Source: Pyrodictiaceae archaeon
GTDB lineage: Archaea > Thermoproteota > Thermoprotei_A > Sulfolobales > Pyrodictiaceae
Direction of reading: 5' to 3'
Length of the DNA stretch: 64,000 bases
Assembly: GCA_027036135.1 (NCBI GenBank)
Contig: JALVSY010000030.1
Coordinates: forward strand, 224,001 to 288,000
Numbering within the stretch: position 1 is the first letter of the stretch; the number at the start of each line of letters is the position of its first letter. Below the pieces are notes generated by a model, which ran no database searches, was not told where the DNA came from, and saw only the letters and a program-made list of their open reading frames with translations. Shown one piece after another: positions 2,392-60,687 of this stretch. A program made the position numbers and the translations under genes.

Positions 2392-2424
2392 ATCCACGCA
2401 CTATGGAAGCTTCTCACACGATCA

Positions 2425-3198
2425 CTAAGTTACTAGGACTGCCTCCCGGCTACAATAAAGCCTCGGAGGATACATCTCGCCAAGACCCCTCGAAACATAC
2501 ATGACATTACCCCTTAGGCGGTAAAGACCCCACCTATACCCATAAACACTGTTAGTCGCGATACTAATGCTTCCCGGTAAACAGACTTGGCCACCATGGG
2601 TATGGCCAGCAAGCAGCGAAGCACCGTGCTTCCCCAGGTAGGGAAAAGCGTCAGGAGAATGAGAGACGAATACATCGGCGCCGCCAAGCCCTTGGAGTGC
2701 CTCCTCGTAGTCCCGGGGATTATCGCGCCAATCAAGCCCAGCAACACGGAGCCCAGCACCGTCAACAACCTCGTCGCGTAGAACCATGACACCAAGATTC
2801 TCTAGCCCGGCTATAGCCTCCCTCAACGGGAACTTGCTAGTATTCCAATACTCATGGTTACCCAGTATAGCGATAACAACCCTTGCGTTCCTTCGAAGAC
2901 CTTCTACAAGCATCCGTACAACGCTCATGTCATGTGTGCGTTCATCCCATAGGTCGCCGCCAATAATTACAATATCGGGCCCGAGCTTCTCGGCAACCCT
3001 CACCACGTAGTCTCGCTCACCACTTCTATGGACATGTATATCGGGTAAGAACAAGACCCTCCTGCCAAGACCGAAATCAAGACGAGTCATAGTAAGAGAA
3101 ACACCGTTCACTGCACCAACTGCGGTGAACCCCAACGCGCTAGCCGCTATTGCTAAGAGGAATCGTCGCCTACTAACCCGCATAGCTCTCATGCACAA
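2425..3198 (-). CDS. Tat-exported metallophosphoesterase
   Basis: SRRRFLL twin-arginine signal; DIH, GGD, GNHE and GHTHGGQ motifs. Confidence 0.9.
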   Translation of the reverse strand: MCMRAMRVSRRRFLLAIAASALGFTAVGAVNGVSLTMTRLDFGLGRRVLFLPDIHVHRSGERDYVVRVAEKLGPDIVIIGGDLWDERTHDMSVVRMLVEGLRRNARVVIAILGNHEYWNTSKFPLREAIAGLENLGVMVLRDEVVDGAGLRVAGLDWRDNPRDYEEALQGLGGADVFVSHSPDAFPYLGKHGASLLAGHTHGGQVCLPGSISIATNSVYGYRWGLYRLRGNVMYVSRGLGEMYPPRLYCSREAVLVT

Positions 3199-46047: not shown

Positions 46048-46267
46048 ACGGAAAACTATTTACTGGGCAAATAGGTACTACAAAGACAGCTTGCATGAGT
46101 TACCCCTGAATCATGCATCGCTTAAATATCTAGAGCGTTTCATAAAGGAAAGAGGCATAGCGTCTATTGAATTGGTATCATAGTTAAGCATATGCCTTGT
46201 CTACTTCAATCAGCTATAATATAGCATGTAATAATGACGTGAATGACCCGAATAAGGATTCCCCGGA

Positions 46268-46339
46268 GCCCCCGAGGAGCAGACCGCTGGCGGACTATTC
46301 TTCCCCCCGGAGACGGAGCACTGCGTACTTCCCCGGGGC
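46268..46339 (-). ncRNA. putative structured RNA, three-way junction (copy 1)
   Basis: P1 CCCCGGGGA/UCCUCGGGG, P2 GCAG/CUGC, two hairpins linked by AAGAAUAG; same architecture as 56704-56790. Confidence 0.55.
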
Positions 46340-46516
46340 TTCACGGACTTTAAGCCCGCAGAAACAAGGAAGCGGAGCAAAACTCCACCCCACCACTTAA
46401 GCCAATACAACACCCCACTACTTAGCGGACATGTAATAAACGCAAGATAGCCTTTGAGAAAAAGCCTTAAACCGGGCCCTCTAATGCAATAAGACCAAAA
46501 TGGAGTCCTCTCCTCT

Positions 46517-46626
46517 GGGGCCGTCGTCTAGCTTGGCAGGATGCGGGGCTTGGGCCCCCGTACGGCCTTCCCGCCCTAGGGAGGCCGGGGCGAAGGTCCG
46601 GGGTTCAAATCCCCGCGGCCCCACCA
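46517..46626 (+). tRNA. tRNA-Pro(TGG) with ~33-nt non-canonical intron in the variable loop
   Basis: GGGGCCG...CGGGG-CTTGGGC-CCCCG, hairpin insert ~46562-46594, GGTC CGGGG TTCAAAT CCCCG CGGCCCC ACCA; 77 nt after removing the insert. Confidence 0.92.
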
Positions 46627-47282
46627 TATAGCACCCCTATAAATTTCTATCAATTCTAAGCACACTCCTTAGTTAACTAGTTGACGAACGTTTTGTTATA
46701 TTAACGTTCTATGGTGTTAGGAGTGTTAGTTGAAGTATTTAGAGTGCATTTTCTAGCCTATGTAGAGCTGTCCAAGATAGTTTTGTGAATATGTTTACGT
46801 AATATCTTCATTGTCAAGGATTTACTAGTATTACATGGAGCTTGTCTAGGTCTGCATGGGCATGCTGAGTGAAGGATATAAACTAATTTACGCTAGTTAC
46901 TAAATCTCTATGATTTTGAGGTTAACGGTAAATAAATAATTGAATGAGTGTGACTGACTATAACTGTGATATTTAAACAAGATGGCAGCGAAGGTGCAAA
47001 CTGTCATGAATATGGGAGAGTTCGGGCGTGGGGGAGTGTGGTTAATGGTGTGTTAATTGGTGATAATTGTATTTATTGTCTATGTTTATATGTACATACC
47101 TAGTTAGAAAAGGATCTTGGGGTTTCTTAGGAAAAATAGAGCCAGGAGGCGGAGAGTACTAGGTTAATGGGATTACGATATGGAAGCGTAAGTAAGTTTA
47201 TATTGAGTAGTTTGTGGGAACTATACAGTGGAGCTAAGCGTTACCTTTAAATAAGTCTTCTAAGGGTGCGACAGGGGCTTGA

Positions 47283-47483
47283 TTGGAAATGGCAAGGGTT
47301 GTGTCGTTTCCTGAAGAGCTGCGTGGCAAGTGGGTGGCCTATAAGCTCAACAGAGATATCCAAGTGATAGACTATGACGAGGACTTCGAGAAGCTCCTAG
47401 CTAGGCTACGTAGCAAGGGCTTGGACGTGAGATTTATCCAGGTAGACTATGTCCCTGACGAGGACGTAGTCTTTCTGGTCTAG
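47283..47483 (+). CDS. DUF5678-like small protein
   Basis: RGKWVA.....VI..DED...L...........YVP pattern. Confidence 0.7.
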   Translation: MEMARVVSFPEELRGKWVAYKLNRDIQVIDYDEDFEKLLARLRSKGLDVRFIQVDYVPDEDVVFLV

Positions 47484-47493
47484 GTGCCCGGTA

Positions 47494-47946
47494 TTGGAAT
47501 GCGTTAATGGGTTTTTCCAACGTCTCTCATCCGCTACTGAATACCCTCTCGTGAAAGCGCGTCTCTACATCGATGGCGAGCTAAAGGGCGAGCTTCTCCT
47601 CCTGGTAGATACTGGCGCGGGTGTAACTAGTATATCCTATAGGGATGCCCTGAGACTGGGACTCACCAACATAGTGAAGCGCGGGCCAAGAAGGAAAGTA
47701 GTGGGGGTATCTGGTACTGCGCAGGAACGCGTACTAGCAGGCACCATAGAGCTAGAACTATTTGATGAAAGCAACGTGCTAAGGCTAAGGCTCAGCTCAG
47801 TAACCGTGGCGGAAAAGCCGAGACAACACGGTAAAGACTTCAATCTGGCCCTCCAGAGACCGAGCATACTAGGCTGGGACGCCCTCAAAAACACAGTAAT
47901 AACGGTAGACTATGGCAAGAAGCTTGTACAAATTTGCTTACCATGA
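47494..47946 (+). CDS. retropepsin-like (clan AA) aspartic protease
   Basis: LVDTGA catalytic motif, V.GV.G flap, SILG.D.L. Confidence 0.88.
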   Translation: MECVNGFFQRLSSATEYPLVKARLYIDGELKGELLLLVDTGAGVTSISYRDALRLGLTNIVKRGPRRKVVGVSGTAQERVLAGTIELELFDESNVLRLRLSSVTVAEKPRQHGKDFNLALQRPSILGWDALKNTVITVDYGKKLVQICLP

Positions 47947-48185
47947 TTCGTTCAATGCTCCTTTAGTAACTAGGAGTGCCAGCACTATCTCGACGAATAT
48001 TTGAATGTATTTTGTATTAATAATGAATCTAGGAATCTAAAGAATAGAAAACATAGTCACAGACTAAGAAAGAGGCTGCAAACGTGATGAGGAAAGGAAG
48101 TGAACCTAAGGGTATAAACTTTTGACTCAATGACCAGCATAGGAGTTTTTCGAAAACATTGCTAAAACCGGGGAATAGTAGAGGG

Positions 48186-48611
48186 TTAGTCCTGGCTACT
48201 TATCTTTATCCAGATCAGCGTTACCTCGCTCGTTTTACTTGTTTTTGTTACGCAGTTGTTTTCTCGTAGCTTCTCCTCCGCCCTCATCACTGGCTCTGGT
48301 GGCTCGGGGATGTCCGGTGCCTCCGAGGCATACATAGCTAGTGCCTCTGCTAAGTCGTCGTCTCTGAAGCCTAGTGCATGAACTAGTTCGTGGAGGAGGG
48401 CATGGGCGGCGTAGCCCGTGTCGAACAGTATGTGCGGGGACACGGTAACGAAGCCACCGCTCCTATTCTCCACATAGATTGCGTCAACAGCCCCGCCTTC
48501 ATCCCCGACCAGAAGAGCGGGGAAAATAGCTAGGCGCCTATCCCTAGCAAGCTCCCTGGGAACCCCGAGCAATACCTCGCAAAACTCCCTCCTATCACTA
48601 GGGCAATCCAC
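48186..48611 (-). CDS. HEXXH zincin-like metalloprotease
   Basis: ALLHELVHALG....E; frame stays open upstream to ~48750. Confidence 0.7.
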   Translation of the reverse strand: MDCPSDRREFCEVLLGVPRELARDRRLAIFPALLVGDEGGAVDAIYVENRSGGFVTVSPHILFDTGYAAHALLHELVHALGFRDDDLAEALAMYASEAPDIPEPPEPVMRAEEKLRENNCVTKTSKTSEVTLIWIKISSQD

Positions 48612-48864
48612 GAGAACCTTAGCGGCCTTCTCAACAGCCTCAACAAGCCTCGATATAAACCACTCAACCCCGACACCAAGAACCGTAACAACACGGGGCT
48701 CAGAAGACAGTGCGTGAGCACCCCCTAAACTATTATCTGTTATCTTGGTCCACTAAGTGGTGTTGTCTAGCTCTAGTTCTGGGCCACATTAGGGGTATGA
48801 GTGGCTTAGCGTCAATGCTCTCGCTCTATCCTTCTCAGCGGCTCTTACGAGTTTTAAGGCTTCA

Positions 48865-50448
48865 TCAATATCTACTGTGAATATTTTTAACTCTTCCATG
48901 GTTCCTCTTATTAGTCCACTCTATTAGCCTTCTGAGCCATGTCCTCGGGAGAATTGCTGCTTGGGGAGGCGGTAATACTATCCAGAGCTCTGAGCCTCCT
49001 TTCTCCACGATAGGTGCTCGCTCCTCTATGAGGTTCCTAAGCCTTAGTAGTGGTAGCCCGCGCCCGTAGAGCGTCTCTACCTCAACTATTATGCTTGTGC
49101 CCCGGCTACTGGCACAGACGTCGGCAAGTACGCCCACCATGTCTCTGCACTCGTGCTCGGCTCCTACATTTTCGTAGCCTAGCACGTGTTTTAGGTATAG
49201 ATAGGCTACAGCCTTGAAGGCGTAGTGAACAATGCTCTCTCCCTCGGGGCTTACCGGGACCTCTAGTTGTACAACACTACTGCCAGCTATGCGTGCCAGC
49301 CTCATATAGTACATAGTGTCTGCGTGCCTAGCGTAGCCGTCGAGGCCTATAAGGGATATAGCGCTTTCATCCCCGTAGGGTGGTAGCGGCTTCTCGGCAT
49401 TAACTATGCGGCCCCAGATCATATTAATAATTGCTATGAGCTGGGAAGGCGGTTTCGCCTCAACGCCTCTAAGCCTTACTCTGAATGCTGGTGCAGGTAA
49501 TGGAGGAGATACATCCTCTAAGGTATTTGCAGCCACAATCTCTCTCAGCGCTATAGCTGCGTTATCTGTATAGATTACGATGAACCCGTAGCCCTGTGAG
49601 AACAGCTCAGCCAATTTCTCACGGACACGTCTCAGACCCTCCTCGTCCCTCCCCTTAAGGGCGACAAGTTCCTCGGAGCCAAGCTTGACGAGAGCTACGC
49701 TGCTAGTCGCATAAAGCTCAATAGTCCTCTCTATAGCCCCAGTTAAGCTAAGAGCTACAAAGGGCCTCGGAACACCATGAGCCATTCGGTGAATCTCCCG
49801 TAGCAATCGCGTCAAAAGCTCCGAGTACTCGAGGAGACCCTTCTCAGCGAGAATCAGCACTGGCCTATCATGGGCCACAAGCCCCACTAATAAACCCCGC
49901 ACACTCGTAGCCTCATCCCATGCAAGATCCTCGACAACTAGGAGTTCATCCGCGCTTCCCGCAACACTAGCTACCCAGTCCTCCTCAACACCCCTCTTCT
50001 CACCAGTCACGCGCTTTTCGGCCCTAGTCTCCGAGATCCTAGAGGAGGCGTTCTGTACAGCGGGCTCAGCATAAGCACTAGTCCAGGAAAGAGACATGTC
50101 AGGAAAACTTACAGCTCGAATCTCCCTCGCAGACCTAAAGAGTGTTGAAACACTGTAAACCCTTAAGGGCTCCTCACCGGGCCACTCTGGAAGAGAGACA
50201 TCAATCTCCCTATCTATAACGACCCCGTCAGCAGGCTGAAACACCACATTCCCGGCCAGAATTGCTCGCAGCCCAGCAGGGCCAACACCTAGCTCAATAC
50301 TAGTCACCGCATCACCAGCTATATCAACTTCACGAGGCTCCAGGAACACTATCTCCTCAAGCTCTCTAGCCCTAGGCTCAACTACGTCAGCCAAATCAAT
50401 ATCGCTGTCAACCATTGAGACACTGATCACAGAGGGCTCGAACACCAA
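48865..50448 (-). CDS. large protein with C-terminal PD-(D/E)XK (CoiA-like) nuclease; probably frameshifted at both ends
   Basis: ES..H...K, ADV....I.VEVETL motifs. Frame open upstream to ~50620; removing one A from the run near 48885 gives C-terminus KIFTVDIDE... Confidence 0.65.
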   Translation of the reverse strand: MVFEPSVISVSMVDSDIDLADVVEPRARELEEIVFLEPREVDIAGDAVTSIELGVGPAGLRAILAGNVVFQPADGVVIDREIDVSLPEWPGEEPLRVYSVSTLFRSAREIRAVSFPDMSLSWTSAYAEPAVQNASSRISETRAEKRVTGEKRGVEEDWVASVAGSADELLVVEDLAWDEATSVRGLLVGLVAHDRPVLILAEKGLLEYSELLTRLLREIHRMAHGVPRPFVALSLTGAIERTIELYATSSVALVKLGSEELVALKGRDEEGLRRVREKLAELFSQGYGFIVIYTDNAAIALREIVAANTLEDVSPPLPAPAFRVRLRGVEAKPPSQLIAIINMIWGRIVNAEKPLPPYGDESAISLIGLDGYARHADTMYYMRLARIAGSSVVQLEVPVSPEGESIVHYAFKAVAYLYLKHVLGYENVGAEHECRDMVGVLADVCASSRGTSIIVEVETLYGRGLPLLRLRNLIEERAPIVEKGGSELWIVLPPPQAAILPRTWLRRLIEWTNKRNHGRVKNIHSRY

Positions 50449-50637
50449 GGCTACATGTATCGGATACCTAATTTTCTCTTCCCTAAGCTTGGTAACCGTT
50501 TCAATACCATGTATAACTCTCTCTGAAGCAGCTTCTTCAACATTTATATTATGAATCGTATTTTCGCCTTGTCGGTACGCGTCCTTAACCGTAATCCCGT
50601 GCTCTTTAATACCTTTTTATTCAAACTGTTGTCTCCC

Positions 50638-51820
50638 TCAATACAAACGCCACAGTGTTTGAATATACAACTCATCTTGTCTATAGAGAGCAACGCCTAG
50701 AAAAGCTAGAGGTGCTATGGCTTCAACAAAAGATGTATATGAAACATTGTCAATGCTTCCGCCGGAAAGTTGAACGCGGTAGTATGCTATATTATACCAT
50801 AAAGGAATATATATCCCATATAATGATTGACAAACGCTTCCAACATAACCAATTTTAACTTCAATTCCTTTCTCCCTCACCGCTTCTAGTAATACTTTTA
50901 TTATCGATTTGTAGACCTCAAGATAACGGTTATACTCGTTTATAATGTTTACGAAGTATTTTGTTGAGAATGTTGTTTGTGGCTATTAGTCCGTGGAGGC
51001 TGTATGCTAGGCATATTAGCTTGTGGAGTAGCCAGCCACTACTCTGGGGTACGTGGCCTATTATTGCTCTCTTTAGCTTCTCTTCTTTGTTTAGTATGTC
51101 CGGGGCTAGTAGTACTTGGAGTCTTATTCCGTAGGTTTTGAAGGTCTCTTTAAGTTCTTCCTCTTTTGGTTCGACTTGGTCGTTTCTTTGCTCGAAGCTT
51201 ATGCCGTATATATGTTGTAGGTAGAAGGTCGGGGTTGACATGAAGCTTTGCAGTATAAAGGTCACTGGATTGTAGAGGGGTAGGAGCTTCTTTGAGGTGT
51301 CAAGTATGTCTTTTAGGGCTCGGAGGGCGGCGAGGGGGTCTTTGGCGTCATAGTTTATGGGCTCTACCTCTGCTTCGGCTCTGCTCTTCTCGTATAGTAT
51401 CTGGTAAAGTGTCTTGTTTATCTCCCTTATAGTATCCACGATCTTGTTGCTGTTTATCCCGATCTTGATGTCTTTGCCTGCGTCGGCTGGTTTATCGCCC
51501 TCCCTGAGCCTCGTAGCGAATTTCCTTAACTCGTCGCTATCTATGTCTATTCCCGGTGCTTTGCGGTAAAAGAGTCCTAGAGCTCTATCACTGTACTTGG
51601 CTTTCTCCGCGTTGAAGCCTCCTAGTATGGTTTTTAGCAGGTACTCTTTCTCCTCGTCTCTTATGATATCTTCCAGCGTTCTCCCTGAAAGCATGGCAGT
51701 AAGTTCTTGGTAGAGCTGTAAGAAGCCCAGGGTCCTCCAGTATAGCTTGGCTAAAAGCCGCCAATACTCGTCCCACTTGTCGTGGTTAAGAAGGATGCTC
51801 CGAAGCTCTGTGTATTTCAA
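50638..51820 (-). pseudogene. hypothetical helical protein, apparently split into 50930-51820 and 50638-50880
   Basis: Two consecutive same-strand ORFs with a short gap, running directly into the nuclease gene. Confidence 0.45.
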
Positions 51821-52192
51821 GTAGCTTCCCGCCCTAGAGTCTGTGCAATAAATATAGTATATGTTTTACCCTTTATAGATTCTGTGATAAGCGCGAACTA
51901 ACTAGGATGAGAAACACCTAATATGGTGGCTTCGCTTTACCCATACTACTCCATATTCATAATTAATTACCTGGCTATAGGCACCTATAACCAAGGCTAA
52001 GATGATTCCTATGTTTCCTTGTAAAAACTTTTTGGAAACACTTTAGTGGTTCTCAATCAATATATCATGGACAATTAGCTAGGTATTGTAATCTAGTGTT
52101 TAGTTAGAGAACGTGACTAGCAAGCAAGTGCTTGGTTAGGGTATAGATGTAGTTTCCTTCGTCTTCTCAAGCGGGTTTTAAATAAAATTCTT

Positions 52193-53107
52193 CTAAGCGT
52201 TATTAATGATTATATTCTTTATAGCATTATTTATCAGTTTTTCTGCTTCCTCAATTAGTTCTTCCATTCGTCTCCAGCTATTCTCGAGGCTTTTCATGAG
52301 TTCTTGTTCTTGTTGCAGCCCTAGCTCCATAATGACTTGAGCAAGTGCTTCTGTTACCAGCGTAGAGATGTTTGTATAGAACTTTCTCAGTGAGCCGCCG
52401 TATACGGCTACGTAGTCGTAGAATCTGCTTCTCTTCGAGGCCTCCACGGCTACGTAGAAACGGGTCGTGTTAAGTAAGTATGTCTCGGTCATGCTTATTG
52501 CTTTCTCTACGTGATAAATCCTTGACACTCCATTGAAGTACTTCTTAGCCCTTGGGGTCATCCTTTCTATGACTTGGTGCACGAACTCGCTCCAGTTAAT
52601 TCTTCTCTCAAACTCTAGTCTCTTGTTTAGCTTCTCCATAGCCTCGTCAGATAAGACATTGGTGATCTCTTTGAAATGCTTGTGGAGATTCTCGAAGAGG
52701 TTTGAGGGAGGCAGCGGAAAACTTATTCTCATAGAACCAAGTATTCTCAAGCGAATATCGTGTAGATCTATGCGGATCCCTCTAAGAACAGTGTCAGGAT
52801 CTAACTCTATACCGAGAAGTCTAGAGGACTTAACTCTCTCAAAGAGATCATCGAGTGCGTGGTGTAGGTAGAAGAGGTGAGGCTTTGAAGCAAGTTTCTG
52901 GAGTACCTGCTTAGCATTTCTAGCAAGCTTATGCCTCCTTGCACCACCCTCGGTCATGTATGGTGGATAAGGCTCCTTAACTACGGAAATACCGATATCA
53001 TGGAGGGGGCCAGCATCAATAAGTCTTTCAACAAGCTCATCCCTTCCATAGCCGAGGATATCAGCAATTAGCCAATGAAGTCTCCAAGAAGGCATACCTC
53101 CACCCAT
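52193..53107 (-). CDS. putative metal-dependent hydrolase (MPSWxxH...D...HD...HHALD), paralogue 1
   Basis: MPSWRLH, LIDAGPLHDIG, LHHALDD. Confidence 0.7.
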   Translation of the reverse strand: MGGGMPSWRLHWLIADILGYGRDELVERLIDAGPLHDIGISVVKEPYPPYMTEGGARRHKLARNAKQVLQKLASKPHLFYLHHALDDLFERVKSSRLLGIELDPDTVLRGIRIDLHDIRLRILGSMRISFPLPPSNLFENLHKHFKEITNVLSDEAMEKLNKRLEFERRINWSEFVHQVIERMTPRAKKYFNGVSRIYHVEKAISMTETYLLNTTRFYVAVEASKRSRFYDYVAVYGGSLRKFYTNISTLVTEALAQVIMELGLQQEQELMKSLENSWRRMEELIEEAEKLINNAIKNIIINNA

Positions 53108-53350
53108 CTACCCAGAGACTCACGGGTGAGCAATTTGTGTCCCGAGAGCGCTGCTTAGTAATCTCTATTCTTTTCCATTAGATGCAGGAAGCAGCGCTCT
53201 TAAATTATAGTACTAATCGTGATCTCGCGCTTAGCGATAGACTATATAAGTGAGGTTGGTAAATATAATACAGAACTAGGGTCTTAGCATCCTATACCTC
53301 TAGCTACGACTTCATAGCATGCATCTATTAGTTTGTTTGGAGGATGAGGT

Positions 53351-54519
53351 TTGCCTAGTCACGATGGCCATAGGTTGCTTTCTATGAAGTATCTTGGTGC
53401 TCCGGGGTATGTAGTTACTGAGGTTGATAGGCTTATTGATCTAGGTCCGGTGCATGATATTGGTAGGAGGAAGCCGGGTAAGCCGCCAGCTTATCTAGAG
53501 ATAGTCGAGCAGGGAGATGTTGAGAAGCTGTACCGGGTAAGGCTTAGAGAGAACGCCGCTAGAGTGCTGGCCAGCATCTGTGAAGATGAGACGAAGGCTA
53601 GGGTATTCTTTTTCACCATGCACTAGATGTTCTGGCACAGAGGCTTTCTTCGGCCATTATTCTAGGGCTGGAGCCTAGGAAGATATGCAGGGATCTTATT
53701 GAAGGTGTTCTCTGTGACTTATCGGAAGTGGAAATAAATTTGAGGAAAATGGGCATTATTTGCCCACAAAATCCCGTGAAGAAGGTGAAAGAGGTTCTGC
53801 TCTCCTCTTGCACTGATGCAGTACTAGTTAATTGGGTAAAGGATAACATGGTCCCGAGGTACAGGAACTACAAATCCCTCGAATATATAAAAGAAAGATA
53901 CATGAACACTATACCTAGTATTTTCAAAAGTGATGCAAAGTATGGGGTTAATCTTATTTTAGGCGTTATAGCACATCTTGTTAAGTCGTCTAAACCAAGC
54001 TCCACTAACCATATACGTGAAGTAGAGCTAGAAGTTGGCAGAACGAGGTTTAAAGCCTCAATTAGCGAAGATCAAGGCGTCTTCATAAAGAGGGAGAACA
54101 TTGTTGAAGAGTATAGAAGGGAGCTGAGCAGAAGGGTTGAGACACTGAAGTTGTCGCCTTATGGTCTTGGGAGGTTAAGGAAAATAATTGTTAACCTAGC
54201 CTCACTGTACTCCGATCTCTATCACTTACCCTTTATAGAGCCCTATTGCATTAGCTTAGCTGTCGAGAGAATATTGTCTACGAGAAAGAAGAGGTACTCG
54301 CTTGCAAGTAATGTGCTAAGATGCTATAGTAGGTACTCTAGTGAAATCCTTGAGGCTAGAAGCTGTGCAGCGCGTGAAATCAATCGGGTCTTGGAGCACT
54401 ATGCCGGTGTTATTACTAGGCAGAGGCTCGAGGAAATAGGGAACAAGTTCATAGAGGCCTTGGAGGAACTCTCGGAATTCTCCGCTAGTATCGGAATAAA
54501 CGTTCTTAGCGATATGTAG
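53351..54519 (+). pseudogene. putative metal-dependent hydrolase paralogue 2, frameshift in T-run ~53609-53613
   Basis: MPSHDGH...LIDLGPVHDIG, then HHALDVL in the frame of ORF 53728-54519. Confidence 0.75.
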
Positions 54520-54568
54520 TAGAGAATTAAAAATTGTATCTCTATAAGACTATGGCGTAGACTAGTTT

Positions 54569-55597
54569 TTATTCTTTGCCTAAATAATGCTTTATGAACT
54601 CGCATAGCTCTGTATAGTTATTGAACTTTAGCCTTATTATGCTGTTGAGACAAGGGTTCTTCTCCGTTATTGAGAAATGTATGTATATGGGTTGCCCCCT
54701 TCTTACTAGGTTATAGACCCTTAGAGCTGCTACTGGTATATCTAGTTGCTTTCCTTGCCGCGGCTCTCTCGTAGAGATGCATACTACTTCGTTAAGCAAG
54801 TTTTTCCTAGCAAAGATTAGGAGAGCGTCTTTGAACGAGTCGCCGTTACAGCCTGGTATGGGCCCTTTTCTCTTGAACTCCAGGTTGAGGATTCCGTCAA
54901 TATAGATGCAGTGTCTCCTAAACGCGTTGACTATTTGTTCTGTAATGTTGATAAGATCTTTCTCGGTTGCTAGTTTGAGGTTGAATCTATTCATGTGGTT
55001 TATGTGGTTCCAGAGCTTATATTTGGTGCACTCAATAACTATGTCACACCGGGTTTGTAGTGGTCCATAATAGCTCATGCAGTCCGTGAAAATGTCCAGG
55101 GCGTAGTGCATGATTGCTAGAGTGAGGATTTCGCCTGGTATATAAATCTCGTGGGTACGGGTGTATTGGGATAATGATTTCTTATTCTTGATCGTTGTTA
55201 GGAGGTCTAGGGCAACTTTATATCTCTCCTCTCGGGAAGCATGCGTGAACACACCGTTAACCACTATGTCGCCGAACTCGGCGAAAAGCATTAGCAGCAT
55301 ACATGCAAGCGAGAAGGGCCTAGGCTTGTGCTCGACACCATGTTCGCCACATACTTTATCTGCATCAGCCATGAGATTATTGAACTCTTCAACTCCTTCA
55401 TCGCTTATTGCTCGTATCTCGGGCTCCTTACTACGGAGAAGAAGATAGACACGAATATGGGCATCCCAAGAGGGCACAAAACAACCCTCCCGAGATAGTT
55501 TTACCCTGTGCGCTATATTCTTAATGATATGCAGAGTATTAGCAGTTTCTAGATCGCAATATCCCGTGTTGCCATGATACGGGGAGAAGTAGCTCAT
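54569..55597 (-). CDS. putative metal-dependent hydrolase, paralogue 3
   Basis: VPSWDAH...MAD.....EHG...MHYALDIF. Confidence 0.6.
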   Translation of the reverse strand: MSYFSPYHGNTGYCDLETANTLHIIKNIAHRVKLSREGCFVPSWDAHIRVYLLLRSKEPEIRAISDEGVEEFNNLMADADKVCGEHGVEHKPRPFSLACMLLMLFAEFGDIVVNGVFTHASREERYKVALDLLTTIKNKKSLSQYTRTHEIYIPGEILTLAIMHYALDIFTDCMSYYGPLQTRCDIVIECTKYKLWNHINHMNRFNLKLATEKDLINITEQIVNAFRRHCIYIDGILNLEFKRKGPIPGCNGDSFKDALLIFARKNLLNEVVCISTREPRQGKQLDIPVAALRVYNLVRRGQPIYIHFSITEKNPCLNSIIRLKFNNYTELCEFIKHYLGKE

Positions 55598-55674
55598 CTA
55601 CATGCGTGAATACTACAAGGGTTAGGAATCGATTTTAGCTTCTGGAATGCATTTTCTCCCGTAGGTGCTGGTTA

Positions 55675-56613
55675 GTGGTTGAACGTAGTATAGAGGATGA
55701 GGTCATTCTTAATTGGGAACAGTTACCCGTATTCTATTGCCCGGTATGTGGCAAGAAGATAGTTGATTGGTGGGGATGGGGTGGAGAACCGCACGTTGAG
55801 CCGTGTCGTCATCTTCTGTTCATTTATTTCTGGAATAGTGGCGAATTTCTATACATAAGGAATGATTTAGCAAAGGAGTTAGAGCAACGAGGGATTAAGC
55901 TAGAGAGAACCAGTACTGGTTTTGAACCTAAAGGTGATTTCGAGGACATCTTGGTCCTTTTGAGAGAAATACTTGCATTGACAAGCTTTGCTGTATTCAC
56001 TCTTCATGCGCAGCAAGGGCCTCCGATGGCAGAGGAGTTTGTGGCTTCAATAGGCATAGAGTTTGTAGAGGAATCCGGGTATACATGGTTTGCACAAAGT
56101 ATCACTAATATCATTAATGAGAAAACTATTGTATCTCTCAGAGAACTTGTATATAGTGGGAATCCCCCTAGAGACCCCGGCAAGGCTACACGAAAGGCCC
56201 TAGAATGGGTTAATAGGCATATTATACTTGATGGTTGTGACAAGGACTCGCTTGTAGATATAGATGAGCCTCTTTATATAGTCAATGAGGGACGTGGCTC
56301 GTGCGGAGACATAGCCCTTCTCTTAGCTATTGCCCTTCTCTCAGCTGGTATTGAGCCTGTGTATATAGTCGACTACGATACTCTCAATGGCAGGTATGTA
56401 ACAGTAGCTGTGGAGATTAATGATAAGGCACTAGTATTAGATGGAGAGCCTATCGAGTGGAGCAAATACTTCAATAATGTTAACCTATTATCCGATGTAC
56501 GTGTCTACAAGATAACACTAGGCAAGGAAAAACTAGGTAAGGTAGATTATTGTAGAATTGATAAGAACAAGGTCTTGCTACGCCGCTGTAGTCCCTTCTG
56601 TGGATGCCATTGA
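55675..56613 (+). CDS. Zn-ribbon plus transglutaminase-like domain protein
   Basis: CPVCG...PC.H N-terminus; G.GSC.D.ALL...LL..GI, LVLD motifs. Confidence 0.7.
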   Translation: MVERSIEDEVILNWEQLPVFYCPVCGKKIVDWWGWGGEPHVEPCRHLLFIYFWNSGEFLYIRNDLAKELEQRGIKLERTSTGFEPKGDFEDILVLLREILALTSFAVFTLHAQQGPPMAEEFVASIGIEFVEESGYTWFAQSITNIINEKTIVSLRELVYSGNPPRDPGKATRKALEWVNRHIILDGCDKDSLVDIDEPLYIVNEGRGSCGDIALLLAIALLSAGIEPVYIVDYDTLNGRYVTVAVEINDKALVLDGEPIEWSKYFNNVNLLSDVRVYKITLGKEKLGKVDYCRIDKNKVLLRRCSPFCGCH

Positions 56614-56703
56614 TTAGCTACGAGCTATGGACCATACTGGATCGAGATAATTAGAAGGTTTTTGTGGAATCTTTTCTTCTGATTTTCTCTGGGTAGGTGT
56701 TGT

Positions 56704-56790
56704 AGGGGCCCCGAGGAGCGGATACCCCGCAGCCGAGGCTCTTCTTGCCCCTATGGGTCAGGGCGGCTCCGGACTCCTCGGGGATCCCCT
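56704..56790 (-). ncRNA. putative structured RNA, three-way junction (copy 2)
   Basis: P1 CCCCGAGGAG/CUCCUCGGGG, P2 CGGA/UCCG, two hairpins linked by AAGAAGAG; AT-rich TATA-like tract ~27 nt upstream on the minus strand. Confidence 0.6.
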
Positions 56791-56903
56791 TATACATTTA
56801 TTGCTCCGGGTATTACTATATTTTTCTTTTAATTGTTAAATATTTGTTTAATTCTGTCGCCGATTCTCTATTTTAATTGATACCCCGCAGCCGAGGTGAT
56901 AGT

Positions 56904-57920
56904 ATGGGTCATGTATTTCCTGGCCTAGGTAAATCATGTTCCGAACTTTTCAATGCCCCTATGGGTCAGGGTGGCGAGGAGGCTGGGGCGCGTTGTAGCA
57001 TAGGGGTGTTGGCGAGTAATGGGGATGTGCAAAGACTGTTGGGGTTTGTTGGGGTTGGGATAGTGCCTGTTATGAGGAGGGACTTTGAGTGGGCTTGTGG
57101 TATGCTGGCGTTCCTGTATGGTGATGGTATTGTGGAGCTTCGGCGTGGGGTGAGGAGTTTCCGTGTTATGGCCAGGGTCTCTACTACTAGGGCGTCGACG
57201 TTGTTTGCTGCGGCTGCGCGTTACTTGGTGTTTGCGTCGGAGGGTAGCGGGGGCAGTGTTTATTGCGGCCATGGGCTGACTAGAAGCGATATGCGGTTCG
57301 TGGTGCCGCTCGATATTGAGGCCTTAAGGTACCTTGGCTTAGGCCATCTCATGGAGGGTAAGAAGGGTGTACGTAAGGATCTCTTTACGTGCTTGGATAA
57401 CGATAAGGCGGTTATGCATGTTGCCGCGGGGCTGATAGATAGCGAGGGAAGTATATCCAAGAAGGCTTGGAGGATATACATAGGGATGAAGGATGCCGGG
57501 CTGCTAACTCGTCTAGGTAGGCGGCTGAGCGAGCTAGGTATCGAGGTGGTGCCGGCGCGGTTTCTAAGAAACGGCGTCATGATATTGGAGTTCAAGGGTA
57601 GTGAGAGGATAAGGGGTATTGTAGAGAGTGTTGTGAACCCTAGTAAGCGCGTACTAATGGCTAGGATGCTTATCGATAAGAGGACTCTGCGAAAGAAGAT
57701 CTACAGAGTGCTTGTTAACGAGGTCCGCATAGTGGCTCGGAGGCTCGATGAGCCCGTGGGGGCTGTTGAGTGCCTTGAGTGCGCGAAGACGGTGCTAAGG
57801 GAGGCCCGCGCCCTAGCCTCCGCTGGAGACATGGAAGGGGGTTGTTCTATACCCCCTTCCACCTTTGTGGCTATATTGGTTTTATTTTTGCTAGTACTGG
57901 TTTGCTTGCCCCTATCTTGA
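56904..57920 (+). CDS. free-standing double-motif LAGLIDADG homing endonuclease-like protein
   Basis: Motifs MLAFLYGDG and VAAGLIDSEGSI; ATG 56904 follows a GAGGTGA SD. Confidence 0.75.
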   Translation: MGHVFPGLGKSCSELFNAPMGQGGEEAGARCSIGVLASNGDVQRLLGFVGVGIVPVMRRDFEWACGMLAFLYGDGIVELRRGVRSFRVMARVSTTRASTLFAAAARYLVFASEGSGGSVYCGHGLTRSDMRFVVPLDIEALRYLGLGHLMEGKKGVRKDLFTCLDNDKAVMHVAAGLIDSEGSISKKAWRIYIGMKDAGLLTRLGRRLSELGIEVVPARFLRNGVMILEFKGSERIRGIVESVVNPSKRVLMARMLIDKRTLRKKIYRVLVNEVRIVARRLDEPVGAVECLECAKTVLREARALASAGDMEGGCSIPPSTFVAILVLFLLVLVCLPLS

Positions 57921-58908
57921 CTATTGCTTCCCCTGTTTCTAGGCTTAGTAGTGTCTTTGTGAGGGCTTGTTTTGCGCGTGGCTCTGGGGCTAGGTGCTCG
58001 GCTAGTCGTTTGGCTGATTCTGTGTCTGGTTGTTGGTGTGCTATGATTGTTTGTTGGTTGTGATGGAGTGGTGTTGGGTGGCTTGTTAGTGTTATGAGGC
58101 GTATGTTTTTCTTCCTTGCTTCGAGGAGGAGTTGTTCGAGTGGGGTTCCTGGCTGGGCTGTGTGGTGTGCTTCCTCTACTGCTAGGTAGAGTAGTGTTGT
58201 TGCTTGCTTGTTGGCTTGGAGGTGTGTGGCTAGTAGCTGGGTGTAGGTCTTTTTCTGGCTTGGTGTGAGGCCTGAGAGGTCTATTGTGTATATTTTGCCT
58301 GGCTGGGGGCTCGCTGGGTCTAGTTTCTTGTCTGGGCCTGGTTCTAGTTGCTCTAGTACTGGTTGTAGTGCCCATAGCCTCCTTAGTAGCGCGTGTGTGC
58401 TTGTCCTGGTGTCTGCTCTTGGTGTGTTCTCTGCTAGTTTCTCTAGCTCCTCTACTAGGCTTCTTACCCGCCTCCTTGTCCTGGCAAGGGTCTTTGCTAG
58501 TAGCTGGGCCATTAGGGGGCTTAGGGAGTAGTGGTCTCCGTGGACGCGTAGCGCTGCCTCGAGGGCTTCTACGACGCGGCGGGGATCGGGGTAGTTGAGC
58601 ACGGGGACCCTTACCTGCCACGGCTCTAGGGCGTGGCTCGCTATGTCGCTGTGCTCTCCCTCCCAGTCGAGGACCAGGACCGCGGCGCCTTGGCGGGCCA
58701 GGGCCCTTGCCAGGGTTTTCAAGGTGTGGGATTTGCCGCTCTCCGTCGCCCCAACTATGCCCACGTGCCCCGTGTCCCTCGGCACTAGTAGCTCGGCAGC
58801 GGCCTCCCTGCCTGGGGCCTCCACGACCCCTATGGGCTCCCCAGCGGCCACGGGGGGGCTGTGCCTAGTAGTGGCCACTCGAGGTGCCTGGGCAGCACCT
58901 TTGACCAC
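57871..58908 (-). CDS. HerA/FtsK/VirB4-like ATPase (DUF87)
   Basis: HVGIVGATESGKS, VLDWEGE, VEEAH and EARK motifs. Confidence 0.88.
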   Translation of the reverse strand: MVKGAAQAPRVATTRHSPPVAAGEPIGVVEAPGREAAAELLVPRDTGHVGIVGATESGKSHTLKTLARALARQGAAVLVLDWEGEHSDIASHALEPWQVRVPVLNYPDPRRVVEALEAALRVHGDHYSLSPLMAQLLAKTLARTRRRVRSLVEELEKLAENTPRADTRTSTHALLRRLWALQPVLEQLEPGPDKKLDPASPQPGKIYTIDLSGLTPSQKKTYTQLLATHLQANKQATTLLYLAVEEAHHTAQPGTPLEQLLLEARKKNIRLITLTSHPTPLHHNQQTIIAHQQPDTESAKRLAEHLAPEPRAKQALTKTLLSLETGEAIVKIGASKPVLAKIKPI

Positions 58909-59411
58909 GCGGGGCCGGGGCTGCGACAGGGCTCGGGGATTGGTACTCTTAGGTCCCTTATCCTGCCCTCTAGGATGTAGCAGAACACCTTGTCCGGGAT
59001 ATTGTAGCCGTCGCTGGGCTTGGCTAGGAAGCGCTTCTCCGCCTCCTCGTGTATCCTAGCCACCCGTTCCTCGACCTCCCCGGGGGACCAGGTCTCGCCG
59101 AGCACATAGCTCCTCAGCTCTAGGCAAGTGGTGCAGGCGAGGAGGCTCGGGTAATCCAGGGCAGCCGACGCGACCATTAGGTGGAGTAGGGCGCCGTGCG
59201 GGGAGCCCTGGGTGCAGCCTCTTAGGCAGAGCTCGAAGCAACCAACACTACGCCAGCCACTACAGGCACCGAGGAGCCCCGTGGCGAACACTGCCCCGAG
59301 ACCGCCCACGCCAAGAAACACGTCGAGGCCGCCGAGCCCGATGCGCAGCACAGAGCCCGGAGACGGCCACGAAGAACACGCTCCAACACATAAACAACCT
59401 CGCCGAGACAA
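58830..59411 (-). CDS. hypothetical protein upstream of (possibly fused to) the HerA-like ATPase
   Basis: Same strand, overlaps the ATPase start; start and frame uncertain. Confidence 0.4.
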   Translation of the reverse strand: MSRRGCLCVGACSSWPSPGSVLRIGLGGLDVFLGVGGLGAVFATGLLGACSGWRSVGCFELCLRGCTQGSPHGALLHLMVASAALDYPSLLACTTCLELRSYVLGETWSPGEVEERVARIHEEAEKRFLAKPSDGYNIPDKVFCYILEGRIRDLRVPIPEPCRSPGPAWSKVLPRHLEWPLLGTAPPWPLGSP

Positions 59412-59811
59412 CCCTCAACAACCAACACATCCCCACAAACAACGCCACAAACCACACCACAGACAAAGAACCCAGACAACCCCCAGCGCCCAAAACACCC
59501 CCGGGCAAAAGCCACAGGGAAGGACAGAGAGCACGCCACAACTACACACAACAGCTCAGACCCGCTGCGGCAAAGCGCACAGACACATCTATCCGATAAG
59601 GCGTCATCATAGAGGATAGTTTTCTGAGAAGGCTTGGCAAACGTGCTTCTCTTAGGACTAGCATTAGCTAGGAAAGCTTCTGAGCAGTCCTTTGGAGGGC
59701 AGTATAGCGCTGCGCATGCATATATGGTGTTATCCAGGCGTAGTAGGGTTCGGGCCTTGTTGCATTACGAATCGATCAATTCTCTTTGGATATTAGAATA
59801 GGATGTAGTGC

Positions 59812-59912
59812 GGGGCCCGAAACCCCGGGCGGCCCAGGGACGGCGTGACCGGGCTAGCTGAGCCTTGATGAGGGCTGTGTGAGCCGACCCGGCCCCCGGG
59901 GCGGGATGCCCC
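59812..59912 (+). ncRNA. putative GC-rich structured RNA
   Basis: Nested stems GGGGC/GCCCC, CCCCGGG/CCCGGGG, CCGGG/CCCGG and GCCTT/AGGGC, with CUGA and UGAUGA motifs, in intergenic DNA. Confidence 0.5.
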
Positions 59913-60182
59913 ATGTTATAATACAGGGGAGGAGCTATGTATGTTTTATCTGAGTACCTTCATTACTCATAGTGCTTTCAGTGACAGACTCTGCTGATAG
60001 AATGTTCCCTATCATGTTTGCTCTATTGCCAGGTAATTGTTTGAACGAGGCTGTTACTCCGTCTCTCTATGACTCCAGGGCACACGTGAGCTGTGGAGCT
60101 CGTTTTGCCTTTGCGTCAAGGGCCTCCCGGGAGTCTTGACGTGGAGGATTAGGTTATAGGTAGAGGCTAGGTTTCTCTGTCC

Positions 60183-60248
60183 TTAAGGACGCTCGAACTC
60201 GGCCTCGAGTAAGAACTCCTCTATCTCTTCTCTGCTCGCCTTACTCAG
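60183..60248 (-). pseudogene. remnant of the AF2212-like antitoxin C-terminus
   Basis: Reads LSKASREEIEEFLLEAEFERP*, near-identical to LGKASREEIEELLLEAEFERL* of 45166-45393. Confidence 0.75.
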
Positions 60249-60381
60249 TTAATGGGTGGGATCTGGCGGCTTATTATATCGAATATTATGTGATGTGGGT
60301 TACCTTATATGATGGCATAACGTTAAAAGATACTAGGCATAGTATATTGCTAGTCTATACTGGAGCTAATGGTGCTTAGAG

Positions 60382-60687
60382 TTGGCGACTGGTCTCTTGT
60401 ATAAGAAGGCGTCTAGGGTGCTTGGTATCCGTGAAGATGTATTGGAGAGGGAGGCTCTGCGCCAGTACATCTTATCCGAGCTTAGGCGTGTTAGGCTAGA
60501 GTCTAGGCTCATTATGGCCCGTTATGGTGTATCAAGCATTGAGGAGCTTGACGAGAAGATTAGGCGCGGAGAACTAGAGGAGTCAGAGGTCTTTGAGGAT
60601 CTTACTCGCCTCGATTATCTACTCGATCGCGAGAAGAGACTGGAGAAGCTCTTAGAGGAATTGGAAAAGGGTGAATATGTGCAATAA
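60382..60687 (+). CDS. small antitoxin-like helical protein
   Basis: RYGVSSIEELDEKI..G...E...FED...LDYL pattern common in archaeal TA neighbourhoods. Confidence 0.6.
   Translation: MATGLLYKKASRVLGIREDVLEREALRQYILSELRRVRLESRLIMARYGVSSIEELDEKIRRGELEESEVFEDLTRLDYLLDREKRLEKLLEELEKGEYVQ

Follow-up and report, generated by a model that had tools for sequence, protein, structure and literature searches.

In divergently arranged type I toxin-antitoxin loci of bacteria, a small RNA (sRNA) is encoded next to the toxin gene without overlapping it and carries about 20 nucleotides (nt) of perfect complementarity to the 5′ region of the toxin messenger RNA (mRNA) (Fozo 2010, PMC2887945). In the rac prophage of Escherichia coli, the DNase toxin RalR is held down by the sRNA RalA, which has a 16-nt complementarity to the toxin mRNA (PMC4041452). 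Here, we describe an archaeal locus that appears to resemble these systems. It lies in a 64,000-nt stretch of the Pyrodictiaceae assembly GCA_027036135.1 (contig JALVSY010000030.1, positions 224,001–288,000 of the forward strand; hereafter, the window) and consists of a GC-clamped hairpin placed upstream of a free-standing LAGLIDADG-like gene, with two segments of the hairpin interior repeated at the start of the gene. We propose, with a confidence slightly above even, that a divergently transcribed antisense RNA encoded by the hairpin blocks translation of this gene.

As in z3289/sRNA-1 (ZorO/OrzO), the putative small RNA gene adjoins its target, diverges from it, and does not overlap it (PMC2887945). 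Unlike in ZorO/OrzO, the host is an archaeon, the target is a LAGLIDADG-like protein of 338 amino acids (aa) instead of a small membrane peptide, and two arms are held within a GC clamp hairpin, one of them corresponding to the ribosome-binding site. The likeness to RalR/RalA is that a predicted nuclease on probably integrated mobile DNA is accompanied by a small putative RNA with short complementarity to the mRNA, whereas RalR/RalA is bacterial and has a different protein fold and a single pairing site. TisB/IstR-1 and ShoB/OhsC are further loci with divergently encoded antitoxin sRNAs. Pairing at two sites, the ribosome-binding site and the coding region, bridged by one structured RNA, is known from OxyS and fhlA; OxyS is trans-encoded and uses kissing loops of approximately 7–9 nt, whereas the arms described here are 18–22 nt long and the RNA gene would be adjacent to its target. 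Among the entries listed by full-text literature searches on archaeal LAGLIDADG proteins and antisense RNA, and on archaeal type I toxin-antitoxin systems, none was pertinent, and a 2025 abstract lists type I systems from bacterial phyla only (PMC12390103). We found no description of the element in these searches or in Rfam. Four features set it apart from the described systems: its domain of life, its target, the presence of two long arms, and the clamp hairpin.

The genome holding the window (designated G000) is a 2.2-Mb archaeal genome assembled from hydrothermal-vent metagenomes. The hairpin, identified by sequence reading and folding, occupies positions 56704–56789 and, as the proposed antisense RNA, would be read from the minus strand. 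Its closing stem is formed by 10 base pairs (bp), all of the Watson-Crick type, between CCCCGAGGAG (56708–56717) and CTCCTCGGGG (56774–56783), and is extended outward by GGGG/CCCC pairing (56704–07/56786–89). The interior consists of arm A1 (56721–56738), a 7-nt loop (CTCTTCT), and arm B1 (56746–56767) in this order. The original prediction for this DNA had stated that both arms recur at the beginning of the neighboring gene, and this is indeed the case. Arm A1, GATACCCCGCAGCCGAGG, is repeated in 18 of 18 letters as target A2 (56879–56896, plus strand), the 3′ end of which overlaps a GAGGTGA ribosome-binding motif (56893–56899) located 4 nt upstream of ATG 56904. The recurrence of arm B, previously noted as an 18-nt repeat over an in-frame ATG, extends further, to TGCCCCTATGGGTCAGGG[C/T]GGC; B1 matches target B2 (56954–56975, plus strand) at 21 of 22 positions, and B2 lies in the coding region at codons 18–24 and spans the in-frame ATG at 56961–56963. 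The single mismatch in arm B is a C in the hairpin and a T in the gene; with a hairpin RNA read from the minus strand, it would become a G·U pair. A third copy of a short motif, TATGGGTCA, is also present at 56903–56911 over the start codon (ATG 56904–56906), as had been predicted. A2 and B2 are separated by a gap of 57 nt. Relative to the start codon, the copies of A are located at −184 and −26, and those of B at −159 and +49. The 89-nt spacer between the hairpin and A2 (56790–56878) is AT-rich and contains, by sequence reading, TATA-like boxes in both directions, which may serve as promoters: AAAATATA on the minus strand at 56824–56817, ahead of the stem base at 56789, and TTAAATATTT (56836–56845) and TATTTTAA (56870–56877) on the plus strand.

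Arms A and B have no further copy on either strand of the 2.2-Mb genome. A genome-wide scan for exact direct repeats present in two copies (at least 16 nt, spacing 40–400 nt) yielded 35 repeats, the majority of which belong to CRISPR arrays, and the site described here was the only one among them with neighboring repeats of unequal spacings (158 and 208 nt). When the upstream region was locally aligned with the start region of the gene, the best score was 19, compared with a maximum of 12 in 200 shuffles. The predicted folding energy of the hairpin is −52.7 kcal/mol on the minus strand (z −4.0) and −54.8 kcal/mol on the plus strand (z −3.1). A search of Rfam at gathering thresholds returned only two transfer RNAs (tRNAs), and the E-value mode gave chance-level matches (best E 5–8). 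No DNA homologue of the hairpin was found in 28 genomes of the family, where all matches were at chance level (E > 0.01), and the exact arms were not found in the viral contig collection. The scaffold pattern occurs in two of the 351 genomes of the class, the one holding the window and one other (G056); the latter match sits inside a coding gene and was rejected as unrelated.

The same layout was found in a genome from another family of the same order (G138; coordinates are given on the minus strand of locus L036), whose LAGLIDADG-like protein is 24% identical to that of the window over 242 residues (E 2e-8). A perfect 15-bp stem (2452–2438/2386–2372), in a hairpin with a folding energy of −51 kcal/mol (z about −4 on either strand), encloses arm A′ (19 nt), a 3-nt loop, and arm B′ (19 nt), and an AT-rich spacer is located downstream. 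The second copy of A′ (19/19) spans the start codon, ATG 2280, and the second copy of B′ (18/19) lies 42 nt past this copy of A′. The positions relative to the start codon are −155 and −8 for A′ and −133 and +53 for B′, with repeat spacings of 147 and 186 nt, and the upstream-versus-start alignment scored 19, compared with a shuffle maximum of 11. The two lineages have arms of unrelated sequence, and in each lineage the arms match the start of the gene beside them, while everything around the arms has diverged. This co-variation, which the original prediction had named as a check in relatives, came out positive at the sole other intact locus with a hairpin. A simple recent duplication is hard to reconcile with it, and a role that depends on identity or complementarity is favored. 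The motif CCCC.AG.GG.GG in the 5′ stem is common to the window hairpin, a second copy in the window (described below), G138 and G139, and, together with the gene-tracking arms, points to the hairpin as an ancestral part of the module. The upstream-versus-start comparison covered six loci (G000, G138, G161, G008, G002 and G139). Scores in the last four were 7–9, which is the level of the shuffles. Arms are thus present in two of the six loci, and in two of the three loci with an intact gene.

If two DNA segments of the same sense are selected for identity, the simplest explanation is that one of them is transcribed in the opposite direction and that the RNAs pair. According to the proposed mechanism, the hairpin would be the gene for a small antisense RNA of approximately 90–100 nt, transcribed out of the AT-rich spacer, on the minus strand and divergently from the target gene. 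The GC-rich clamp stem would stabilize the RNA, and its interior would carry the complements of two mRNA stretches. Anti-A would pair with the ribosome-binding site and start region of the neighboring mRNA, and anti-B would pair with a stretch approximately 50 nt deeper in the mRNA that includes a second in-frame start codon (in the window, about 20 codons into the gene). The pairing would comprise 18 + 22 bp in the window or 19 + 19 bp in G138, with the 57- or 42-nt spacer looped out, and translation would be blocked or the mRNA would be marked for decay. Duplexes of this length should hold at the growth temperature of a vent hyperthermophile. Because the module lies in probably integrated mobile DNA by tRNA genes and with HerA-like ATPases, the RNA would probably keep a potentially toxic nuclease in check, as its safety catch or antitoxin.

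Only the positions of the TATA boxes and two differences compatible with wobble pairing point to the antisense strand. In G138, this strand has a canonical TATA box, TTTATATA, followed after 24 nt by the stem, and in the window it has AAAATATA, followed after 27 nt by the stem base. Both of the two differences between arms and targets in the two lineages are transitions that would give G·U pairs in an antisense duplex. Co-folding with the mRNA gained −34.9 kcal/mol (G000) and −29.3 kcal/mol (G138) for the antisense RNA and −5.0 and −3.3 kcal/mol, respectively, for the sense strand; given the complementarity, a large gain of this kind is to be expected. If it is read from the minus strand, the hairpin would provide an adjacent RNA gene complementary to the start region of the mRNA, as in type I toxin-antitoxin systems. 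The small hydrophobic peptide that is typical, but not universal, for these systems is absent, and the protein is of a soluble type with 338 aa. With regard to the original prediction, antisense control at the start region remains the best fit. The G-U wobbles that had been put forward as evidence for the minus strand did not hold up: the closing stem is entirely Watson-Crick, and only weak predicted inner pairs remain.

Several observations weigh against the antisense explanation. Folding is as good on the plus strand as on the minus strand, and in both G000 and G138 the clamp stem is a perfect Watson-Crick helix; fold energies and clamps therefore fit both strands and do not settle the direction. 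On the antisense strand, neither G000 nor G138 has an oligo-T terminator after the hairpin, and T-rich tracts follow it on the sense strand at both loci. An AT-rich spacer can be expected to contain TATA-like words in any case, and transcription from the proximal box (56870–77) would give a nearly leaderless mRNA that does not contain A2. Two of two wobble-compatible differences could arise by chance (p = 0.25). G161 has an intact gene, and no hairpin or arms were found upstream of it. Finally, the independent intact examples of a hairpin with arms number only two. Because of these points (the strand, the terminator, the TATA words, the leader, G161 and the two examples), our confidence in the antisense explanation stays only a little above even.

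A decayed second module is located in the window at 46262–46420 on the plus strand, and contains the hairpin 5′ stem, an A-like arm, a loop, a B-like arm and gene remnants in this order. Its first part (46262–46340) had been taken for a second RNA copy in which the arms vary. However, it has only the 5′ stem and loop motifs of the hairpin and folds no better than shuffles (z −0.9 and −0.6), and it is half a hairpin fused to a decayed gene. The hairpin 5′ half and the B-like arm continue in frame into an N-terminal remnant (..PPETEHCVL..) and then into a C-terminal remnant. Frame 1 ends with ...KPAETRKRSKTPPHHLSQYNTPL, which resembles the C-termini of P0002 and P0006, indicating a remnant of a P0002/G002-type gene. 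Judging from its sequence, the second module is the leftover of a B1–B2 deletion plus further decay. It is situated just upstream of an intron-containing tRNA-Pro gene (about 46519–46628).

Comparable deletions were found elsewhere. Among the metagenome pieces listed, one from run X3 has 56745 connected to 56954; 208 nt are skipped and 18 letters are shared, which corresponds to a B1–B2 deletion. In the G139 pseudogene, the 5′ stem is directly fused to A and the ATG, which corresponds to an A1–A2 deletion. Because such deletions take away the putative spacer promoters and half of the hairpin, the repeats are costly to keep, and their retention in two distant lineages is all the more telling. 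If the locus were a toxin-antitoxin or addiction module, a tentative possibility taken up below, loss of the RNA gene would be tolerated only with co-deletion of the nuclease promoter, and the observed repeat-mediated deletions would remove both. The listed pieces also include X5 and X10 contigs with left breakpoints at 56697/56700 and different sequence leftward, and one X10 contig has the hairpin (56697–56769) with other flanks and with both insertions or deletions confined to the loop. These breakpoints lie just beyond the base of the hairpin, which suggests that it forms a unit with the gene and not with the left neighbor.

The foremost of the other explanations, although an unlikely one, is that A and B are iterated DNA sites for a sequence-specific protein, either the LAGLIDADG protein acting as an autorepressor or a regulator encoded by the element. 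The co-variation of arms and targets is compatible with this, because drift in the specificity of the protein would produce it. A2 is flanked by a TATA-like box and the start codon, a usual place for archaeal repressors, and the arms (18–22 bp) are as long as a LAGLIDADG target. Some homing endonucleases, such as I-TevI, are known to repress the promoter from which they are expressed. However, A and B are unrelated, and two specificities would be needed. Protein sites rarely require the sharp-edged, letter-perfect identity observed here (18/18, 19/19, 21/22 and 18/19), and such sites leave the placement of both copies within an inverted-repeat clamp of 10–15 bp unexplained.

Next in order, and likewise unlikely, the hairpin might act on the sense strand, either terminating or insulating transcription where the cassette begins at its 5′ border, or serving as a decoy copy of the translation start. 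T-rich tracts follow it on the sense strand at both loci, the 5′ stem contains Shine-Dalgarno-like sequences (GAGGAG/AGAGG), the ATG in the hairpin opens a mini open reading frame (ORF) with 28 (G000) or 30 (G138) codons, and in G139 the 5′ stem is positioned directly ahead of A and the ATG. A terminator, however, needs no identity to the downstream gene, and a terminator scan gave no site in 56550–57000, although its consensus is of the bacterial type and is weak for archaea. The tails of the mini-ORFs derive from the T-rich promoter spacer and are dissimilar between the lineages, and we know of no factor that such a decoy would titrate.

It is quite unlikely that the repeats are a non-functional scar of a local duplication or rearrangement at the 5′ end of the gene, although they do recombine, as shown by the metagenome contig joining 56745 and 56954 and by the comparable deletion forms in the second copy and in G139, and although four of the six loci examined have no arms. 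The same geometry is found with unrelated arms in G138, where the proteins are 24% identical, and this argues against the simple local duplication that had been offered as an alternative in the original prediction. Neutral repeats of 18–22 nt would have decayed long ago, as the sequence between them has, and the spacings (158/208 and 147/186 nt) do not fit one tandem duplication. The remaining idea, an RNA that guides the LAGLIDADG/HerA pair towards nucleic acid or serves as an H/ACA or C/D box modification guide, was suggested by the two arms in a scaffold beside a nuclease gene and by an ACA located 3′ of the stem on the minus strand, but is very improbable, since the arms match only the start region of their own gene genome-wide, there is no Rfam family (best E 5–8) and no match of at least 15 nt to ribosomal RNA (rRNA), the H/ACA pocket geometry is wrong (31 nt between the upper stem and the ACA), and we know of no RNA-guided LAGLIDADG enzyme; the RNA-guided nuclease version of the prediction thus found no support.

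Four further candidates were tried for the hairpin region and rejected. No tRNA model matched, as would be expected for a split or duplicated tRNA piece, and the arms have no rRNA match, as would be expected for an rRNA-exon remnant of an intron. The attachment site of an integrated element does not fit the two unequal arm spacings, and there is no repeat of the tRNA-Pro gene at the far end. A bulge-helix-bulge intron would remove the start codon of the gene in G000.

The LAGLIDADG-like gene (56904–57920, plus strand) encodes 338 aa and contains the motifs FLYGDG and GLIDSEG. Its start codon, ATG 56904, is in frame with the ORF at 56877–57920. The protein of the window scores 21.2 bits with the Pfam family LAGLIDADG_3, just under the cut-off of 22.5, and that of G138 exceeds it with 28.4 bits. 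A profile of the family matches the endonuclease domains of PI-PfuI (1dq3, 2.7e-6), 2dch (I-Tsp061I-like) and I-DmoI. As in these enzymes, two LAGLIDADG motifs are present with D and E at the catalytic positions, and G.IDSEG is invariant in all seven aligned sequences. Unlike these enzymes, the protein is free-standing, residing in neither an rRNA intron nor an intein, and has an extra C-terminal region of approximately 120 aa. The family match and the two acidic motifs that characterize LAGLIDADG endonucleases are observed, but residence in an intron or intein is not; the gene sits between convergent genes. Unlike archaeal homing endonucleases, it is found beside tRNA genes and HerA-like ATPases. 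Within the tail of the gene (57833–57860, plus strand), GGAAGGGGG and CCCCCTTCC form a 9-bp hairpin around a loop, and the relatives have a 3′-end hairpin at the same place, translating as GG...PP. Contigs of other strains, among the pieces listed, have breakpoints just past this 3′ hairpin (57870 and 57893).

The family is rare. Only 11 representatives were found at E ≤ 0.001 among 1.84 billion clusters, and a set of 5.8 billion contained one near-identical protein. Profile matches at E ≤ 1e-5 occur in seven of the 351 class genomes. Among these 351 genomes, close relatives are restricted to G000, G002 and G008, with distant ones in G138 and G161; a search with the G138 protein matched four of them (G138, G139, G140 and G161). 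The copies in G002, G008, G139 and G140 are frameshifted, stop-ridden or fragmentary. Searches of the genome-contig, metagenome-contig and viral-contig collections revealed no further homologous loci, and tblastn against plasmids and phages gave no match. The source genome of P0005 is not among the 401 genomes of the phylum that were sampled.

Compared with G002, the genome holding the window has about 13.7 kb of extra DNA between the tRNA-Pro gene, which ends near 46628, and a conserved ORF of 101 aa (60382–60687); in G002 this distance is about 900 nt. The stretch 46628–60382 is probably integrated mobile DNA. An integrase was not recognized in it, and the majority of the ORFs there gave no match to Pfam or PHROG families. 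A tRNA gene is located beside the LAGLIDADG-like gene in G008, G002 and G161, and beside the remnant in the window as well. In the window, ARAGORN calls only 46545–46626 of the intron-containing tRNA-Pro gene (46519–46628), with an odd anticodon, and the Rfam gathering search misses this tRNA. The same intron-bearing tRNA-Pro gene lies directly ahead of the LAGLIDADG pseudogene in G008. In G161, a tRNA gene that contains a long intron (L037 about 2400–2535, minus strand) and is not called by ARAGORN precedes the intact gene by approximately 120 nt.

A HerA-like ATPase is encoded convergently with the LAGLIDADG-like gene at 57871–58908 on the minus strand (Pfam DUF87, 8.5e-14; PADLOC mad8, 3.7e-15, over nearly the full length). 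Four genomes have such an ATPase with the gene: it is convergent in G000, divergent and truncated in G002, 4.7 kb distant in G008 and part of the same operon in G138. The proteins of G000 and G138 (L036 245–1282, minus strand) share 32% identity. The LAGLIDADG-like protein and the HerA-like ATPase may form a nuclease-ATPase pair with its own function. Tentatively, we raise the possibility that type I toxin-antitoxin or addiction modules have here their first counterpart in archaea, in which a two-arm clamp-hairpin RNA silences a mobile LAGLIDADG nuclease working with a HerA-like ATPase, for the maintenance or homing of elements at tRNA genes. Antisense control of toxic genes by adjacent sRNAs is well known in bacteria, and this principle would extend to archaea if the antisense explanation is true. 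The locus would then also illustrate a design for pairing at high temperature, with long perfect arms within a GC clamp, and would offer a handle on an almost unstudied pair of LAGLIDADG-like protein and HerA-like ATPase that marks integrated elements by tRNA genes.

Some minor features were observed in the surroundings. The region 58900–60300 of the window has a G+C content of 58–65% and overlapping ORFs on both strands, with no clear gene, and 59040–59360 shows protein-level similarity to DNA near the HerA-like gene of G008. In G138, an acidic 98-aa ORF of no family (L036 2495–2791, plus strand) is located just past the hairpin in a divergent orientation, with a TATA-like box of its own; a 45%-identical homologue adjoins the gene fragment of G140, and none is present in G000. 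Elsewhere in the genome holding the window, an exact 19-nt direct repeat, ACCCCCTATGCACTAGTCC, occurs in two copies 151 nt apart in non-coding DNA (contig C32:10081–10250). It was rejected as an instance of the same architecture because it has no hairpin-with-arms design. CRISPR arrays with at least three repeat types of 24–38 nt are located on contigs C2, C7, C9, C36, C37 and C40 and dominate the short direct repeats of the genome.

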